From an uncultured cyanobacterium (GTDB lineage: Bacteria; Cyanobacteriota; Cyanobacteriia; Cyanobacteriales; Nostocaceae): a DNA stretch of 64,000 bases. Below the pieces are notes generated by a model. The model had not been told where the DNA came from. It made no database searches and saw only the letters and a list, made by a program, of their open reading frames with translations. The stretch covers positions 4,608,001 to 4,672,000 of the forward strand of contig OY970166.1 of assembly GCA_963706595.1 (NCBI GenBank), written 5' to 3'. Position 1 is the first letter of the stretch. Each line of letters begins with the position of its first letter. This document shows, one piece after another, positions 15,926-25,672 of the stretch. The position numbers and the translations under genes were made by a program.

Positions 15926-16840
15926 CTAGTTGCATTTGTAGAAAGTTCTGTTTAACAGAAGATTGCGTACCCGGATACAGTCTGGTAAAATGCGAAAACC
16001 TAAGAAATTAGCACCATGTTTGAGTTCAAATAACTGACTTTTCACAGGATGAATTTTTAATCTTAATTGAGATAAATATTCTACAACCTGCAAACGGGCT
16101 TCAGCTAAAAAGTTCCAATCATCAGAAAATAAAGCAAAGTCATCGACGTAGCGCAGGTATTTTCTAGCTTTGAGTTCTTCTTTCACAAAATGGTCAAAAC
16201 TATTTAAATAAACATTAGCAAAAAACTGGCTAGTAAGATTACCAAGCGGTAAACCCCGCCGTCTTTGTAGCGGTGTGAATAAATTATCCCCTGCAAAATG
16301 TTCAGCTATTGGTAACTGTGCGTTGCTGTTGTCAATCATCATATCTATTAACCACAGCGTATCTGCACATTTTAATTTATGACGCAGCAAGGTTTTAAGA
16401 AATTCGTGGTCAATGCTGGGAAAATATTTTTGGATATCGCACTGAAGTACATAGCGACTGGAACGAGCAAATTTGGTAAATCGCCGCAAGGCGCGATGAG
16501 TACCGAAACCTACGCGATTCGCGTAAGAATCACCGATAAAGCTGGATTCAATTAGAGGTACAATAATATTACATAAAGCATGATGTACTACTCTATCTCG
16601 GTAGGGAGCAGCAGAAATCATGCGAATTTTTGGCTCTTTAATGTAAAAGGTTCTATATTCACCCGGCTGATAAGTTTGATTAGTTAGTTCTGTTTGTAAT
16701 TTGGCTAATTCAGCTTCTAAGTTATAGTTAAAATCTAAAACATTTTCTCGGAATCTTTTACCCCTTTGGGCTTTTTTAGCGGCTATTAGGAGATTTTCAA
16801 AATTGATAATTTGATGATAAAGATTACCGTGACGTTTCAT
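15926..16840 (-). CDS. DGR-type reverse transcriptase, apparently C-terminally truncated
   Basis: [30 protein letters not shown] (DGR SQ motif), RYVDD, FLGF; ends ~20 aa after FLGF; abuts avd. Confidence 0.9.
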
Positions 16841-17197
16841 TTAATTTTTTACAGATTTTTGATAATTACTTTGTTGTTTAATCCAGCCACCTAAATCCAT
16901 ACCAATTTCATTAATTAATTTGCCTGCATATTCATATCGGTGGATGGGAATTAAATCAAAATCAAATAATATCCTAGTTTGATATTTTAAAATATCTATA
17001 ATGCTTTTAAGTGGTTCTAACACACTGAGTTTTTCTTGGCGATAGCGAGCAGTTAATAAACCCTCTAGCAAATCATATAATTGATTTGTCATTCTGTCAC
17101 CCAAGGTAAATTTATGAATTTTGGGCAACCGAGTCAGAATTGGGATGTACCATTTAATCAAGTCGTAGGTTTTTTGGATGATTGGTAATTCTTCCAT
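16841..17197 (-). CDS. avd: DGR accessory variability determinant (four-helix bundle)
   Basis: ELPIIQKTYDL...LPKIHKFTLGDR...INEIGMDLGGWIK; lies between target gene and RT. Confidence 0.9.
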   Translation of the reverse strand: MEELPIIQKTYDLIKWYIPILTRLPKIHKFTLGDRMTNQLYDLLEGLLTARYRQEKLSVLEPLKSIIDILKYQTRILFDFDLIPIHRYEYAGKLINEIGMDLGGWIKQQSNYQKSVKN

Positions 17198-17360
17198 TTA
17201 AATTTGAGAAATTTCGCTGTTTGGTTTACATGACAGATTTTATATGTTATACTAAATTATAAGAGTGTATATCTGTAAAAAATTGATCGCTCCGTTTCAC
17301 TACGCTAGGAAAGGGCAAAGAGGAACAAGAGCAAAGAGCAGAGGGCTAGAGTGCAAAGGG

Positions 17361-18845
17361 CTAAAGAGTCCTCGCCGCCGCACCACTACAGACAACCCGA
17401 AAACCGAGATAGTAGTTCGCGTGGTCTGGGTTGTGGTTGCCGCGACGGGCAGAACGACAGTTCTCAGGATAGTTGCCCGACGAACCACCGCGCAGCAGCC
17501 GTCTGTTTTGATTATCATTATCAATCCATTCACTACCGTTATCAGGCGCACGTTCGTAGTTACTGTGCCAAGTATCTAGACACCATTCCCACAGATTTCC
17601 GTGCATATCATACAGTCCAAAGGCATTAGGAGGAAAGCTGCCTACAGGTGTTGTTTTTCGCCGATACTGTCCTTCAGGGCTATTACCATAAGTGTAGTTA
17701 CCATCATAGTTAGCCACTTCAGTTGTAATTATATCACCAAAATGGAAATGTGTGACAGTGCCTGCACGACAAGCATATTCCCATTCCGCCTCACTGGGTA
17801 GTCGGTAATCAAGACCTATTTTTTGAGACAGTCTCTGGCAAAACTCAACTGCATCATACCACGAAATACTCTCTACAGGAAGATGATCATCCCCTTTAAA
17901 ATGAGATGGTCGAATCTCTAGTTTTCTCTTAATTTGTGGAAAAGATGCAGCCACTCTTGCCCATTGTGCTTGAGTTACTAGGTATCTTCCCATATAAAAG
18001 GATGGAACTGTTACTTGGTGTTCGGGGCGTTCATCATCGCCGCTTCCTTCCTCTTTTTCGGAAGCACCCATCATAAAAGTATCACCAGGAATCTTAACCA
18101 TTTCTAGGTTTACACCCTGACCTAAATCTTCTATGAAGCCTTTAGCGTGTTTTGATATAAATTCCTCGTGAACAAATACTTGATTCTCGTATTCTGTTTT
18201 AAATAGTCCTTTTTTTACTTCAACTCGCTTAATGTCCGTTTTTAGCTTTACTATTTCAAACTTAAACTCAAATTTCTGTAATTTTGACTCAGGTTCAATT
18301 GGGGATGGCGAAGGAACGGGCTGAGGATTGGAAACAGGGTTACGAGGTGGCAAAGGTCTCAGCTTACCAAGGGCTGGTTTTTCATTTGCAGGTTGATTAG
18401 TTAAGTGGCGATAAAGGTTTTCATAGCCTTCATCATTATGAGCAAAATAATGAGTAGTTCCTTGCAAAGGCTTAGGGATATCCTCAAATTTACCCGATTC
18501 TAGTAATACAGGTATAAACCTGTGATTTAATGCCCCTGCATTGAAAAGGTCTTGAGATGTCAGATGTCCTTCCCATCGCACACCATTTCCTCGTCCTGGT
18601 TCTTCTTCACCTTTGCAACGACGTTTATAGATTGCTGTACATATTACTAAAACAAAATTCGCTTGCTCAATCTGTCTTTCCATCCACCGAGGCCAGCCTT
18701 CGGGAGGCGCTAATTCATATTGGTCAAGATTGCAGTCAATTCCCGATTTACGTAGCTTATCCGATAATGCTAATACGCTTTGTTTATGTTCAGGCGAGTC
18801 CCAACTATAGCTAATAAAGACTTTTGGCGGAGTCTGATTTGACAT
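17361..18845 (-). CDS. DGR target protein: N-terminal SEFIR domain, Pro-rich linker, C-terminal FGE-sulfatase (CLec-fold) domain
   Basis: PKVFISYSWDSPEH...GWPRWM (SEFIR); RLPSEAEWEYACRAG, NAFGLYDMHGNLWEW, RGGS...GFRVV (FGE/CLec); start at MSNQ. Confidence 0.9.
   Translation of the reverse strand: MSNQTPPKVFISYSWDSPEHKQSVLALSDKLRKSGIDCNLDQYELAPPEGWPRWMERQIEQANFVLVICTAIYKRRCKGEEEPGRGNGVRWEGHLTSQDLFNAGALNHRFIPVLLESGKFEDIPKPLQGTTHYFAHNDEGYENLYRHLTNQPANEKPALGKLRPLPPRNPVSNPQPVPSPSPIEPESKLQKFEFKFEIVKLKTDIKRVEVKKGLFKTEYENQVFVHEEFISKHAKGFIEDLGQGVNLEMVKIPGDTFMMGASEKEEGSGDDERPEHQVTVPSFYMGRYLVTQAQWARVAASFPQIKRKLEIRPSHFKGDDHLPVESISWYDAVEFCQRLSQKIGLDYRLPSEAEWEYACRAGTVTHFHFGDIITTEVANYDGNYTYGNSPEGQYRRKTTPVGSFPPNAFGLYDMHGNLWEWCLDTWHSNYERAPDNGSEWIDNDNQNRRLLRGGSSGNYPENCRSARRGNHNPDHANYYLGFRVVCSGAAARTL
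17385..17500 (-). repeat. DGR variable repeat (VR) at the 3' end of the target gene
   Basis: Encodes LLRGGSSGNYPENCRSARRGNHNPDHANYYLGFRVVC; variable codons (GGC AAC TAT, CGT, GGC AAC CAC AAC, CAC, AAC TAC TAT CTC) fit descent from AAC/AAT/ATC. Confidence 0.75.
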
Positions 18846-19102
18846 ATTTTTAAAAAGGTAAAGATAAACCAAGTAGGGTGTGTTGTCGCGCAGCGCAACG
18901 CACCACAAACAATTCATAACTAATTTCCATAATCTACCGAGATATACTGACTCAAAAGACAAATACTATATTTTTAAACATTTTTCAAGTGTGTACCTAG
19001 CATAGCACTTCTCTACATAGCTATAAATACAGATCCAGCTAAAATATTGAAATTTGTAAGGACTTTAATTACTTTCTAAAAATAAAAATGGATTTGAGTT
19101 TT

Positions 19103-20830: not shown

Positions 20831-23800
20831 CTATAGTAAACTACTCAAGCGATCGCGCAAAATTTCGGCTTGTTTCTCAGCTTCTGCTAAAGATTCTCTC
20901 GCTCCCTTTACCACATCAGCCGGGGCTTTATCCACAAACTTAGGATTGCTTAATCTTGCACTCAAAGAATTAGCCTCTGCTTCCACTTTGTTGAGGCTTT
21001 TTTCCAGTTTGGCACGCAAAGTAGCAATATCTACCACATCACCACTCAAAGGAATTACCACTTGTACAGTTCCCACAACCCCAGAGATGGCATTTTCAGG
21101 TGCTTGTGGCTGTGGTAATTTGGTCTGTAACATGGCTTTGGGAGGGGTTGGTGGGAAAAACTTCGCCCAGAACTTTTGTCTAGCCTCCGCTTTCAGGAGT
21201 ATTTGGATAACAAACCAAGATGTATAACCCAAACCAACTATTTCCAAGAATTTACCGATAACGGGAATTTGATAAACCGTATTCCCCGCAACCAAACCTA
21301 TCCTCGCAAAGACAAGCCCCGCGATAACAAAACCAATTGTCTTCAAACCCCTCTGAGGTTTTTTCTCCACAACTTCAGCGCTGGTTTCCTCTGGAATAGC
21401 CGCTTGTTGAACACCAGCACTTCGGCTGCGCTCAGTACAAGCAATAGTTAAATTCTCCACCTTGGCCAAATCTTGAATATAAGCCTGTCCAGCAGTGAGG
21501 ATTTGCTGTTCTTGGGGATTCTCAGTTTGTAAATTAGCGGTGATTTTCGCCCCTGGCTTAATATCCGCCTCGGCGCGTAAATTCCGAATTGTGCGAATTG
21601 TGCCAATTAGTAATTCAAACTGGGCTTCTAAATCAGGATTAATCAGGTTATTATCGGCTTCAGGATAGGCTTGTAAAGCTAAAGTTTGTAAGGAATCGGC
21701 TGGTTGTTGGGTGAGAGTTTGCCAAATTTCCTCAGTAATATGAGGCATTAAAGGATGCAGTAATTTTAAAATCCCTTCCAATACATAGCCCAGAATTTGT
21801 TGGGCTACCTGGCGCGATGCTGGGTCTGCATCTTTTTGTAACCGGGATTTGACTAATTCAATATACCAGTCACAGAAATCACCCCAAATAAATTCATACA
21901 GACCTTTTGCAGCTTCACCTAAACCATAGTTATCAATGTAATTACTCGTTTGGTTGATAACTTGATGATAACGGGAAATCATCCAGCGATCGCTTAATTC
22001 TGTAGCAATTGGTTCACCCAGTTGTGCTGGAGTTTGTCCATCCAAATTCATCATTACAAATCGGGCTGCATTCCACAACTTATTCGCAAAGTTGCGCGAA
22101 GCTTCCACCGATGCAGACTCATCCTTTTTGCGGTCATACTCCAAGCGGATATTTTGACCCGCACCCGCAACTTCTTTAATTAAGGTATAGCGCAGCGCAT
22201 CAGTCCCATATTTGTCAATTAATAACAGTGGGTCAATCCCATTACCTTTAGTCTTTGACATTTTCTGACCATTTTCATCCAGCACTAAGCCGTGGATGTA
22301 AACATCATTAAATGGCATTTTCCCAGTAAAGTGTCCCGCCATCATCGTCATTCTGGCTACCCAGAAAAAGATGATATCAAAGCCAGTGACTAAAGTACTG
22401 TTAGGGTAATAAGTTGCTAAATCCTGAGTTTGTTCAGGCCAGCCCAAAGTAGAAAACGGCCAGAGTCCAGAAGAGAACCAAGTATCCAATACATCTGGGT
22501 CTTGTTCTAACTTGACATCTGCCCCAAATCGTGATTTAGCTTTTTCCCAAGCCTCATCGACTGATTTGGCGACGATAAACGGCGTATTATCGGTAATTTC
22601 ACCACCAGTTTCACTGACAGCATACCAAGCCGGAATTTGATGACCCCACCACAATTGACGAGAGATACACCAATCTTTTAACTTGACTAACCAATCACGA
22701 TAAACCTTAGTCCAGCGTTGGGGGACAAACTCTGGAGAATTTTGATTATCGAGAAATTTTAAGGCTTTATCAGCCATTGGGCGAATTTTGACAAACCACT
22801 GAGTAGATAATAATGGTTCAACTGGTACTTTACCGCGATCGCTATAAGGAACAGTATGCTTATAATCCTCCACCTTCACCAGCACACCATCGGCTTCTAA
22901 GCGAGAAACCACATTTTTTCGAGCCACAAAGCGGTCTTGTCCTTGGAACTCCCCAGCGTTATCATTGAGAGTCCCGTCCTTATTCATAATATTGATTGAC
23001 GGCAGATTGTGACGCTTACCCATTTCAAAATCATTCGGGTCATGGGCTGGAGTCACTTTTACACAACCAGTCCCAAATTTCGGGTCAACAAACTCATCAC
23101 CAATAATCGGAATTTCCCGATTCATAATTGGCAGAGTTAAGGTTTTGCCAATCAAATGTTTATATCTGTCATCATTGGGATTAACCGCCACACCTGTATC
23201 ACCCAGCATAGTTTCTGGTCGAGTTGTCGCCACTTCCACAAATCCAGAATTATCACTGAGGGGATAGCGGAAATGCCAAAGATTCCCATCAACTTCTTGA
23301 TTATCCACTTCCACATCAGACACCGCCGACATAGAAGCCGGACACCAATTGACTAAGTATTCGCCACGATAAATTAATCCTGATTCGTAGAGACTGACAA
23401 AAGCTTCCAGAACAGCTTGCGATAAACCTTCATCTAAAGTGAACCGTTCCCGTGTCCAGTCAACGGAGACACCCAGGCGTTTTAACTGATTCACAATTGT
23501 ACCCTCAGAATCGGCTTTCCATTGCCAAGCCCGTTCTAAGAATTGTTCGCGTCCCAGTTCGTAGCGAGTTTTACCTTCTTTTTTGAGTTGTTTTTCCAAC
23601 ATCGTGTGAACGGCGATGCTGGCGTGGTCGGTTCCCGGAACCCAGAGAGTATTGCGCCCTTTCATGCGGTGGTAGCGGATGAGGGTATCAATTAAGGCGC
23701 TTTCAAAGGCGTGACCCATGTGTAAACTGCCGGTGACGTTGGGAGGGGGAATCACGATGCAGTAAGGTTCACCGGGGTGATTGGGGTCAGCTTTATAGAC

Positions 23801-23887
23801 TTGGTTTTCTTCCCAAAATTTTTGCCATTTGGCTTCGGTGGTGAATGCGTCGTAGAGACTAGGGAGGTTGGTAATGTTTGCGGTCAT
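20831..23887 (-). CDS. valS: Valyl-tRNA synthetase with inserted CAAD membrane-anchor domain
   Basis: [18 protein letters not shown], two-TM CAAD segment ([19 protein letters not shown]) before the C-terminal coiled coil. Confidence 0.97.
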
Positions 23888-23941
23888 GCTGGGAATACTA
23901 ATTGTGGAGGGACTTTAGTAAATTTTGCCATAGGGGGGAGA

Positions 23942-24430
23942 GGGGTTGATGGAAAAAACGAACCGCCAAGTCGCCAAGTACGCCAAGAGAGGGGAGCCAA
24001 GTCAGGAAGTAGATAGGCTGGCTTATGCTGTGATTGGAGCAGCGCTTGAGGTACATCAACTGTTGGGGCCTGGGTTTTTGGAGCAAGTGTATAAGGAGGC
24101 GTTGATTATAGAATTGTTCAGGCGCGGGATACCTCATGAATTTGAAAAGCCTGTAACAGTAAATTACAAAGGACATGAAGTAGGTACAGGGAGATTAGAT
24201 TTTTTAATAGCCAATTGTCTCATTGTGGAATTGAAAGCTGTCCAGAACCTAGCCCCAATACACGAAGCCCAAGTCCTCTCTTACCTAAAAATGACCAAAC
24301 ACCCACTCGCCCTCCTCATCAACTTTAACGTCCCCCTCCTCAAAGACGGCATCAAACGAATCATCCTCACCTCCTAACTCCTCCCTTGGCGTACTTGGCG
24401 ACTTGGCGGTTCGTTTTTTCCATCAACCCC
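23942..24430. repeat. Perfect 46-bp inverted repeat (23942-23987 / 24385-24430) bracketing the GxxExxY gene
   Basis: GGGGTTGATGGAAAAAACGAACCGCCAAGTCGCCAAGTACGCCAAG and its exact reverse complement. Confidence 0.95.
23949..24377 (+). CDS. GxxExxY family protein (PD-(D/E)XK nuclease superfamily)
   Basis: LGPGFLEQVY, GRLDFL...IVELKAV, HEAQVLSYL, LLINF. Confidence 0.92.
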   Translation: MEKTNRQVAKYAKRGEPSQEVDRLAYAVIGAALEVHQLLGPGFLEQVYKEALIIELFRRGIPHEFEKPVTVNYKGHEVGTGRLDFLIANCLIVELKAVQNLAPIHEAQVLSYLKMTKHPLALLINFNVPLLKDGIKRIILTS

Positions 24431-25672
24431 CCGCATAGCCAAAAGCGCCGAACCAAAAGCAGCCTCAGTATGCACCGAAGAAACCACAGACACCCCTAAA
24501 ACACCTTCCCGAATCGCACACCAAGCACTATTCCCCGCCCCACCCCCAGCCGTATAAACACGAATTAACCTATCCGCACCCATTTCCTGCAACAAACCAT
24601 ACCCACGCCCCTCAATCCTAGCCATACCTTCCAACAACCCATGCAAAAACGCCACAGGATCATCAGGACGTGGTGATAATCGTGGTAGTAAATCGGGATC
24701 ATTAATGGGAAAGCGATCGCCTGCTCGCAACAAGGGATAATAATCTAACCCACTGGCTGTAGTAACATCAATCTCGCCGCTAAACCTTTCCAACTCAGCC
24801 GCACTAAAAAAATGCTTTAGCACAGCCCCCCCAGTATTAGAAGCCCCTCCAGTCAGCCATAAGTTCCCCAATCGATGACTGTAGATACCGTATCGTGAAT
24901 CCTCCACACGCGTCCGACTCAATAATTTAACTACCAACGTTGAACCTAAAGAAGTCACAGCTTCCCCCGGCGATTTAGCCCCACTAGCCAAAAAAGCCGC
25001 AATACTATCAGTTGTCCCAGCACAAACTAAACAATCATCAGGAAAATTGAACTGAGTGGCAATTTCCGGGCGTAATTTGGCTATAGGAGTACCAGGAGTT
25101 AAAACTTTTGGTAGCTGAATCGGTAATTGTAATTTCTCCAGCCATGCTGGATATTTTAACTGCTCCACATCATAGCCCAGCTTTAACGCGTTGTGATAAT
25201 CGCTAATTCCCAAATAGCCATGTAGCAGAAATCCTAACCAATCGGCTTGATGCAGAAAATATTTCGCCTGACTAAAACTAGGTTGTTGCATCATCCACAA
25301 CAATTTAGCCAAACTTGAAGTAGCGCTTAATACATTATGATGCGGTGGTGCAATATTTTTCAACTGCTCCAGCACCACTGCTCCCCGTGCATCGTTGTAC
25401 AGTAAAGGTGCATCTACAGGCTTACCAGCAGCATCAGTTAGCAAGACTGTGGATGACGTACCATTAATAGCGATCGCCTTGACTTCTCGGCGCAATTTCT
25501 CAGGTATTTTTGCCAGCAGTGTAAATAAAGCCGTCTCCCAAGCAGTTGCTAAATCCGAAACAGCCTCATCTAGCCAAGGATACTTGATTTCTGCTTCGGT
25601 GCTGGCTTCACGATTAATCACCACACCCCTAACGCCAGAAGTACCAAAATCGATCCCCAAATAAAAATTCAT
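24374..25672 (-). CDS. FGGY-family carbohydrate kinase
   Basis: LGIDFGTSG, GTTDSIAAFLA, SLGSTL; C-terminus reads through the inverted repeat. Confidence 0.9.
   Translation of the reverse strand: MNFYLGIDFGTSGVRGVVINREASTEAEIKYPWLDEAVSDLATAWETALFTLLAKIPEKLRREVKAIAINGTSSTVLLTDAAGKPVDAPLLYNDARGAVVLEQLKNIAPPHHNVLSATSSLAKLLWMMQQPSFSQAKYFLHQADWLGFLLHGYLGISDYHNALKLGYDVEQLKYPAWLEKLQLPIQLPKVLTPGTPIAKLRPEIATQFNFPDDCLVCAGTTDSIAAFLASGAKSPGEAVTSLGSTLVVKLLSRTRVEDSRYGIYSHRLGNLWLTGGASNTGGAVLKHFFSAAELERFSGEIDVTTASGLDYYPLLRAGDRFPINDPDLLPRLSPRPDDPVAFLHGLLEGMARIEGRGYGLLQEMGADRLIRVYTAGGGAGNSAWCAIREGVLGVSVVSSVHTEAAFGSALLAMRGVDGKNEPPSRQVRQGRS

Follow-up and report, generated by a model that had tools for sequence, protein, structure and literature searches.

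Dispersed triple-heptamer repeats and a resident GxxExxY gene of the PD-(D/E)XK nuclease family suggest a REP-like system in cyanobacteria

Nucleases with swappable specificity are familiar from homing endonucleases and from the exchange of specificity domains in restriction-modification systems; at the locus described here, unlike in those systems, cognate sites are enriched where the gene is present rather than removed. The SDRs and MITEs of the Nostocales, treated by Elhai et al. in 2008, are reportedly short dispersed repeats that nest in one another and within mini-transposons, and the SDRs are said to be stem-loop units without an assigned enzyme. The repeats considered here are likewise short, dispersed and cyanobacterial, and small palindromes insert into their present copies. 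A closer organization is that of REPtrons (RAYT/TnpA-REP; REP/REPIN/BIME), in which, as far as the accessible text of PMC8266576, PMC3686654 and PMC3116915 describes them, the enzyme gene is mostly single-copy and vertically kept, as it is here. In the accessible text of PMC8266576, the spread of short bacterial repeats is described as unresolved even for REP/RAYT. TIRtrons (TIRYT), in the part of PMC3733652 available, share with our locus long terminal inverted repeats that surround a gene and also form dispersed families, and differ in that TIRYTs are tyrosine transposases, whereas the arms here are heptamer arrays (PMC3733652).

The window, a 64,000-nucleotide stretch from an uncultured member of the Nostocaceae (assembly GCA_963706595.1, contig OY970166.1, positions 4,608,001 to 4,672,000), contains a GxxExxY gene framed by two inverted repeat arms, and the closest named records related to it belong to Nodularia, Anabaena and Nostoc. 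The features of the locus, in window coordinates, are these:

20831 to 23887, minus strand: valS, the conserved divergent neighbor marking the orthologous site; context, outside the unit.
23601 to 25000, no strand assigned: strand-skew halo, the plus strand being G-rich to mid-gene (+0.28 to +0.42) and C-rich beyond (-0.24 to -0.50).
23942 to 23987, plus strand: left arm, with a 15-bp outer part holding the start codon, the leader AACGAAC and three CGCCAAG heptamers.
23964-70, 23972-78 and 23981-87, plus strand: left-arm heptamers, the core repeat dispersed genome-wide.
23949 to 24377, plus strand: GxxExxY gene (TIGR04256/PF13366), 142 aa from ATG.
23967 to 24029, plus strand: swappable block, comprising left-arm heptamers and the codons of the start of helix 1, from the linkage scan and residue table.
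24021-23 and 24024-26, plus strand: candidate specificity residues Ala26 and Tyr27, in the swappable block.
24030 to 24375, plus strand: catalytic core, unlinked to arm type, with predicted PD-(D/E)XK residues E46, D85, E95 and K97.
24385 to 24430, minus strand: right arm, whose heptamer type co-switches with helix 1 and whose outer 15 bp appear to be a recent left-arm copy.
24374 to 24415, minus strand: read-through tail of the FGGY-family kinase (24374 to 25672), apparently a by-product of copying that removed the native stop.

The initial annotation of this DNA, made from its letters alone, had described the exact 46-bp inverted repeat, the start codon lying within the left arm and the triple-heptamer structure of the arms, and all three were confirmed; on one strand each arm reads CTTGGCG-2nt-CTTGGCG-1nt-CTTGGCG-GTT, and the inverted repeat extended to 51 nt retains 98% identity. 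The reading frame begins at TTG 23946 (143 aa) or ATG 23949 (142 aa), and residues are numbered here from the TTG. The gene runs opposite to both valS and the kinase. The flanks beyond the arms are not repeated, and Rfam gave 0 matches up to E 1 across 23400-25000. As separate observations, valS carries a CAAD insertion (PF14159), typical of some cyanobacterial synthetases, and the window also holds a diversity-generating retroelement at 15926-18962 on the minus strand, with a reverse transcriptase (15926-16840), Avd (16841-17197; NF033474), a likely template region near 17300-17550 and a target gene (17361-18962) combining SEFIR/TIR and FGE-sulfatase.

The annotated gene is an intact member of its family, matching TIGR04256 at 142 bits (cut-off 35) and PF13366 at 137.6 bits (cut-off 22) in HMM searches. 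No other profile matched the protein, and the search returned no transposase or recombinase domain, as the annotation had also held. PF13366 is entered as function unknown in the family table of PMC3424549, in the accessible part of that source. Sequence searches found no solved homologue. The predicted model (pLDDT 88) places a helix at residues 20-40, and its best structural matches are Cas4 (SSO0001, 4IC1), lambda exonuclease, RecB-type and type II restriction nuclease domains (BpuSI 3S1S, BglII 1D2I), with only nuclease-type folds near the top; because these matches are weak (Foldseek E 1e-3; Z 7.4-7.8, rmsd 2.7-5.0 over 92-115 residues) and tied, they speak for the fold and not for a closest relative. 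G41, G43, E46, Y49, D85, E95 and N126 are invariant in 185/185 proteins and K97 is kept in 184/185, and the acidic-acidic-lysine motif is common to PD-(D/E)XK nucleases. The core fold and the conserved D...E-x-K motif make the GxxExxY protein a likely PD-(D/E)XK nuclease, with cleavage predicted. The PDDEXK_3 match spans residues 24-139 of 143, so there is no space for a methyltransferase domain. The family comprises 5,625 clusters at 50% identity (E <= 1e-10). It includes tandem double GxxExxY proteins of 266-295 aa (P0121, P0123, P0126, P0129, P0131 and P0136), and in these six, by eye, the second domain lacks the catalytic lysine motif, leaving one intact and one degenerate active site, which hints at a dimer that would need only one cut.

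The perfection of the 46-bp repeat was considered as a mark of element ends and rejected, since this arm identity is the longest among 86 valS-site loci (median 21) and is better explained by recent arm-to-arm copying. The outer left sequence that carries the start codon is conserved throughout the clade, and the right side matches it in G000, G001 and G006 only; other relatives have there a T-rich stretch with the kinase stop. From this alignment we infer that the perfect stem reflects recent copying of the left arm onto the right. As the native kinase end already resembles the left flank, such a copy would explain the stem and the kinase read-through tail together. The kinase does run through the right arm, as initially annotated, ending ...MRGVDGKNEPPSRQVRQGRS, and the gained tail proved shorter than claimed, consisting only of the last 14 residues, starting from K. 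Kinases of genus relatives end in ...RGVDGFD* or ...RGVGFF*; because the stop precedes the heptamers in 6/10 genus loci, and two read through in a different frame, the tail is unlikely to be functional. At one further locus (L011, in G010), about 5.5 kb of other DNA separates the right arm from the kinase.

The arms belong to a dispersed repeat family. Under loose criteria the arm core matches at 104 places in the 5.57-Mb genome and at 0 in 2 Mb of Markov sequence; when every related arm type is counted, the total rises to 257, compared with 0 in 1.5 Mb, and 232 of the 257 lie outside ORF calls. Among 135 distinct GxxExxY loci, 132 have full flanks, and 109 of these carry both flanking arms, compared with 17 of 5300 background windows, so that the inverted triple heptamers which the annotation proposed to seek at collected GxxExxY loci are there. 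The annotation had named as its counter-case a gene vertically conserved at this site in relatives without repeats; the gene is vertically conserved, and most of the loci collected do have arms. G034 has one gene and 80 GAG-type copies, most of those listed being identical to its own arms. In alignments of orthologous intergenic sites from five genus relatives, a solo arm may be retained, missing or of another type, and type replacement takes along tens of flanking bases (three regions, among the alignments listed); the same alignments showed neither a target-site duplication nor sharp ends. The idea that arms bracket cargo genes was rejected, as inward pairs spaced 300-1000 bp apart are near chance (4 vs 2.3), and so was a role of Y1 transposases in mobilizing arms, as none of the 6 PF01797 genes in the genome lies within 1.5 kb of an arm. 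Palindromic units of about 25 bp, resembling the SDR elements of the Nostocales, are inserted in the arm leader or between heptamers at seven loci (L007, L009, L010, L024, L126, L134 and L144) and at G000:C1:1151527 and 3012049, some of them in frame in the N-terminus of the gene.

Both arms switch heptamer type together with the first helix of the protein, while the catalytic core is unlinked. When valS-site loci with CGCCAAG arms (24) were compared with those with CRCRGAG arms (33), near-complete linkage to arm type was found only at 23967-24029 and 24387-24405, the latter lying 360 bp off in the right arm; columns of the core and of valS had phi <= 0.41. The linked left block extends about 40 bp past the heptamers into the first helix, which reads L-A/V-Y with AAG arms and L-T-G with GAG arms. 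In six AA/CC pairs the core DNA is 94-97.5% identical, as in valS, and arm plus helix 63-72%. A core-only tree built without helix 1 joins identical proteins with different arms, and the arm-linked signal sits in helix 1. This concerted switching of both arms with helix 1 supports a matched protein and repeat.

The covariation of protein and repeat that the annotation had proposed to look for was found at residue level, in two phyla. A second set, outside the discovery set, comprised the best 70 of 265 matches in 121 genomes from the phylum to which G041, a Victivallales record, belongs. After loci that were broken, short or unparsed (17 cyanobacterial, 2 other) and 3 more without the motif were dropped, 117 cyanobacterial and 68 second-phylum loci were kept, and residues were compared with the arm not adjacent to the helix, the right one. 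Thr26 is accompanied by G at position 5 of the right-arm heptamer at 46/47 cyanobacterial and 17/18 second-phylum loci (1 mixed; 17/17 unambiguous). Where residue 26 is Ala, Val or Ile, position 5 is A at 46/47 cyanobacterial loci, and where it is Ala, Val or Gly, position 5 is A at 9/9 loci of the second phylum. Ser26 is ambivalent, with 3 A, 7 G and 6 mixed in cyanobacteria and 11 A and 5 G in the second phylum. Mutual information ranks column 26 first and column 27 second in both sets, and heptamer letter 4 is not accounted for by helix 1. A paralogue clade with a different leader makes the same switch, IAK/IAT accompanying AAG arms and ITG/ISG accompanying GAG arms. On the core-only tree arm state changes 27 times, and in a small test of 9 independent pairs on starred branches 6.0 went the same way and 0 the opposite (p about 0.03, or about 0.06 without Ser rows). 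By the heptamer pattern used, 22/68 second-phylum genes have no arm. At four loci (L165, L192, L201 and L207) the gene is framed by CAGGAT-type array words and in three (L170, L171 and L176) by longer CCGAG-type arrays; since these arrays escaped the pattern, the residue-letter code probably extends further.

Repeat abundance follows the gene. A count of at least 8 triple arrays is reached, in the second phylum, by 55/61 gene-bearing (median 38) vs 4/60 gene-less genomes (median 1), a co-occurrence whose formal p is inflated by kinship and incomplete assemblies. Of 41 cyanobacteria, 15 have no gene scoring above the cut-off, and these hold 0-9 copies of three patterns.

Cyanobacterial arms also carry a strand-specific G/T skew of about 1 kb. 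Measured on the arm-reading strand at third positions around 143 isolated arms, GC skew within 100 bp upstream of the arm is +0.52 in same-strand genes and +0.24 in opposite ones, against +0.08 and -0.12 at random points, and it decays over about 1 kb on both sides. Four-fold sites shift by about +0.3 and +0.2, on both chromosome strands, and seven control repeat patterns and GAT-ending arrays lacked this shift. Kinase 3' ends with an arm within 100 bp have a skew of 0.55-0.85 (12 loci, 10 of one genus), and those without range from -0.36 to 0.60 (11 loci). In G034 a gradient is again seen, around 20 of its 80 arms. Cyanobacterial GxxExxY genes flip skew between their arms, from +0.81 to -0.80, and second-phylum genes flip little (+0.19/-0.10 with arms, +0.17/-0.03 without). 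Single-strand deamination was rejected as the cause, recent singleton substitutions within 500 bp of arms showing no excess of C>T over G>A (14/93 vs 51/288, p 0.64), and an A>G excess among singletons near arms was not significant. The halo could stem from past episodic damage, from biased conversion or from a preference of arms for skewed DNA.

On balance we favor a REP/RAYT-like pair, in which the PD-(D/E)XK nuclease would bind, nick and rewrite its cognate repeats. The protein, possibly as a dimer, would recognize the heptamer triple through residues 26 and 27 of helix 1 and nick the DNA at the heptamers, after which recombinational repair would place arm copies at further intergenic positions and convert existing arms to the matching type. 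New specificity would enter by recombination as a block of left arm plus helix, after which the right arm would be converted; the left arm, which covers the start codon, may also let the gene repress itself. To our knowledge, hydrolytic PD-(D/E)XK enzymes have no means of joining DNA alone. The layout, vertical residence, purifying selection, dispersal and co-occurrence are shown, as are the switching of both arms with helix 1, left-to-right copying at the locus and, at orthologous sites, solo arms that are gained, lost or replaced by another type. Judged by these comparisons, it is the repeat that moves and changes and the gene that stays put. The annotation's analogy with RAYT/REP is upheld by the arms at collected loci, the covariation and the co-occurrence across genomes.

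A different reading, which we regard as unlikely, is that a host-serving DNA-binding or recombination-hotspot factor reads the repeats, the arms spreading passively (through MITEs or ordinary recombination) and being kept for its action. Purifying selection and vertical residence would suit such a factor, as would the skew halo that accompanies the arms and their clustering behind stop codons, 60/232 starting within 40 bp of a same-strand stop against 238/5000 random points. Flank sharing bears on it both ways: 31 of the 257 arms share both flanks with others, yet 151 share neither. Arms turn over fast and change type at orthologous sites, unlike a conserved regulon, and the share of each type across the genome tracks the resident allele, AAG being more frequent in Ala26 (12) than in Thr26 (6) cyanobacterial genomes (p 0.012; the Thr26 genome G019 is an AAG-rich exception, and Ala26 genomes still carry many GAG arms). 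Since 106 arms share one or more flanks, 31 of them both, some evidently travel within larger repeats. About 14 arms lie inside one larger repeat with shared inverted ends (G000:C1:264746, 1888709, 1937666, 2577983 and others), and two additional arm-carrying families were noted.

Still less probable is that the arms merely pair, as an RNA or single-stranded DNA hairpin controlling the gene, with helix 1 hitchhiking on the left arm. Gene and arms together form a long stem when folded (-96 kcal/mol, z -7.4), the left arm has the type of the right at 92/97 cyanobacterial and 36/36 second-phylum loci, and direct arm-to-arm copying is seen. Two loci are clearly discordant and resemble switching intermediates, L006 (Thr, with GAG on the left and AAG on the right) and L147 (Ala, with AAG on the left and GAG on the right), and in both the residue matches the left arm; as helix 1 is physically linked to that arm, hitchhiking plus selection on arm pairing is possible within the valS clade. 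The same residue-letter rule nevertheless holds in unrelated backgrounds and in the second phylum, and most arms are solo, with close doublets often of mixed type. Pairing would also leave the dependence of the dispersed arms on the gene unexplained.

The gene lies upstream of valS in 10/10 same-genus relatives, several other genera and many Nostocales, in a single orientation at 86/86 valS-site loci, and dN/dS is 0-0.15 in 14 comparisons; by these measures it is under purifying selection and long resident at the valS site, and the annotation's statements that it was inserted between kinase and valS, and that it forms a minimal mobile, homing or invertible unit, are not supported. Recent insertion of an autonomous cassette, whether mobile, homing or invertible, is for this locus largely refuted and very improbable, for although 8/25 loci compared have no gene at valS and similar genes occur elsewhere (as many as 12 in one second-phylum genome), the genome has one copy of this clade's gene, the site is the same across many genera, and adjacency to valS is old where that to the kinase is genus-level. 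The gene-less neighbors all belong to other genera and align too poorly to show a precise empty allele, and no homing pattern with empty sites was seen among them. The similar genes at other sites imply that genes relocate over long times. Contigs of four metagenome runs, in which no piece spans the stretch and rare forms are dropped, contained no arm joints. Two further GxxExxY paralogues in the genome each have their own, different inverted array family, one (G000:C1:3754748-3755134) between genes read by eye as urease subunits and the other (2885263-2885613) with a tandemly repeated upstream array. A Nostoc-like valS-GxxExxY-kinase locus in a record titled Acetobacteraceae (L136) is probably a binning artefact, and one site upstream of valS (L023, in G023) has no GxxExxY gene and three tandem arms plus one inverted arm, possibly a gene-less remnant.

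The REP/RAYT-like pair is apparently a real, widespread system with a directly testable recognition code, and one that has gone undescribed. No published description was found in the openly accessible literature, where searches by topic gave only REP/RAYT or unrelated work, and six repeat 15-mers had no match in literature text; Elhai et al. 2008 may catalogue the repeats. It offers a candidate substrate for the very large uncharacterized GxxExxY family and names residues to mutate, and an unrelated enzyme reaching a REP/RAYT-like organization gives an independent handle on how short repeats spread. We hold only tentatively, at less than even confidence, that GxxExxY proteins are cross-phylum repeat drivers and a second, independent REP-like system, with an exchangeable helix, a residue-to-base code, a one-strand nick, genome-wide rewriting and a strand-specific compositional footprint on neighboring genes. 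If true, a 140-residue nuclease whose specificity is switched by a single helix would be of interest for protein engineering, and the skew halo would extend the effect of the repeats to synonymous codon composition within about 1 kb of hundreds of cyanobacterial sites.

Set against known classes, the locus has neither the features of IS/MITE-type transposons (no transposase or recombinase domain, one clade copy, flanks not repeated) nor those of an invertible segment, 86/86 loci having one orientation among relatives. Its likeness is to REPtrons as the accessible parts of the cited sources portray them. There too the gene is flanked by inverted cognate repeats that are dispersed in intergenic DNA (here 109/132 loci and 257 arms), repeat abundance is tied to a gene that is not itself mobile (here 55/61 vs 4/60), close inward-facing doublets are in excess (here 13 under 300 bp vs about 2 expected), and syntenic genes may be flanked by different repeat classes, as in Nunvar's orthogroups (PMC3686654). 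The differences, within the same sources, lie in the enzyme, HUH/Y1 there and PD-(D/E)XK here, and in the repeat, a 20-50 nt palindrome with a GTAG-type tetranucleotide there and direct heptamer triples with neither here; most arms here are also solo, specificity tracks a swappable N-terminal helix, and a strand-skew halo is present. By analogy, then, the heptamer system works like a REPtron in its organization, and its enzyme family and repeat form place it outside the REPtrons themselves.
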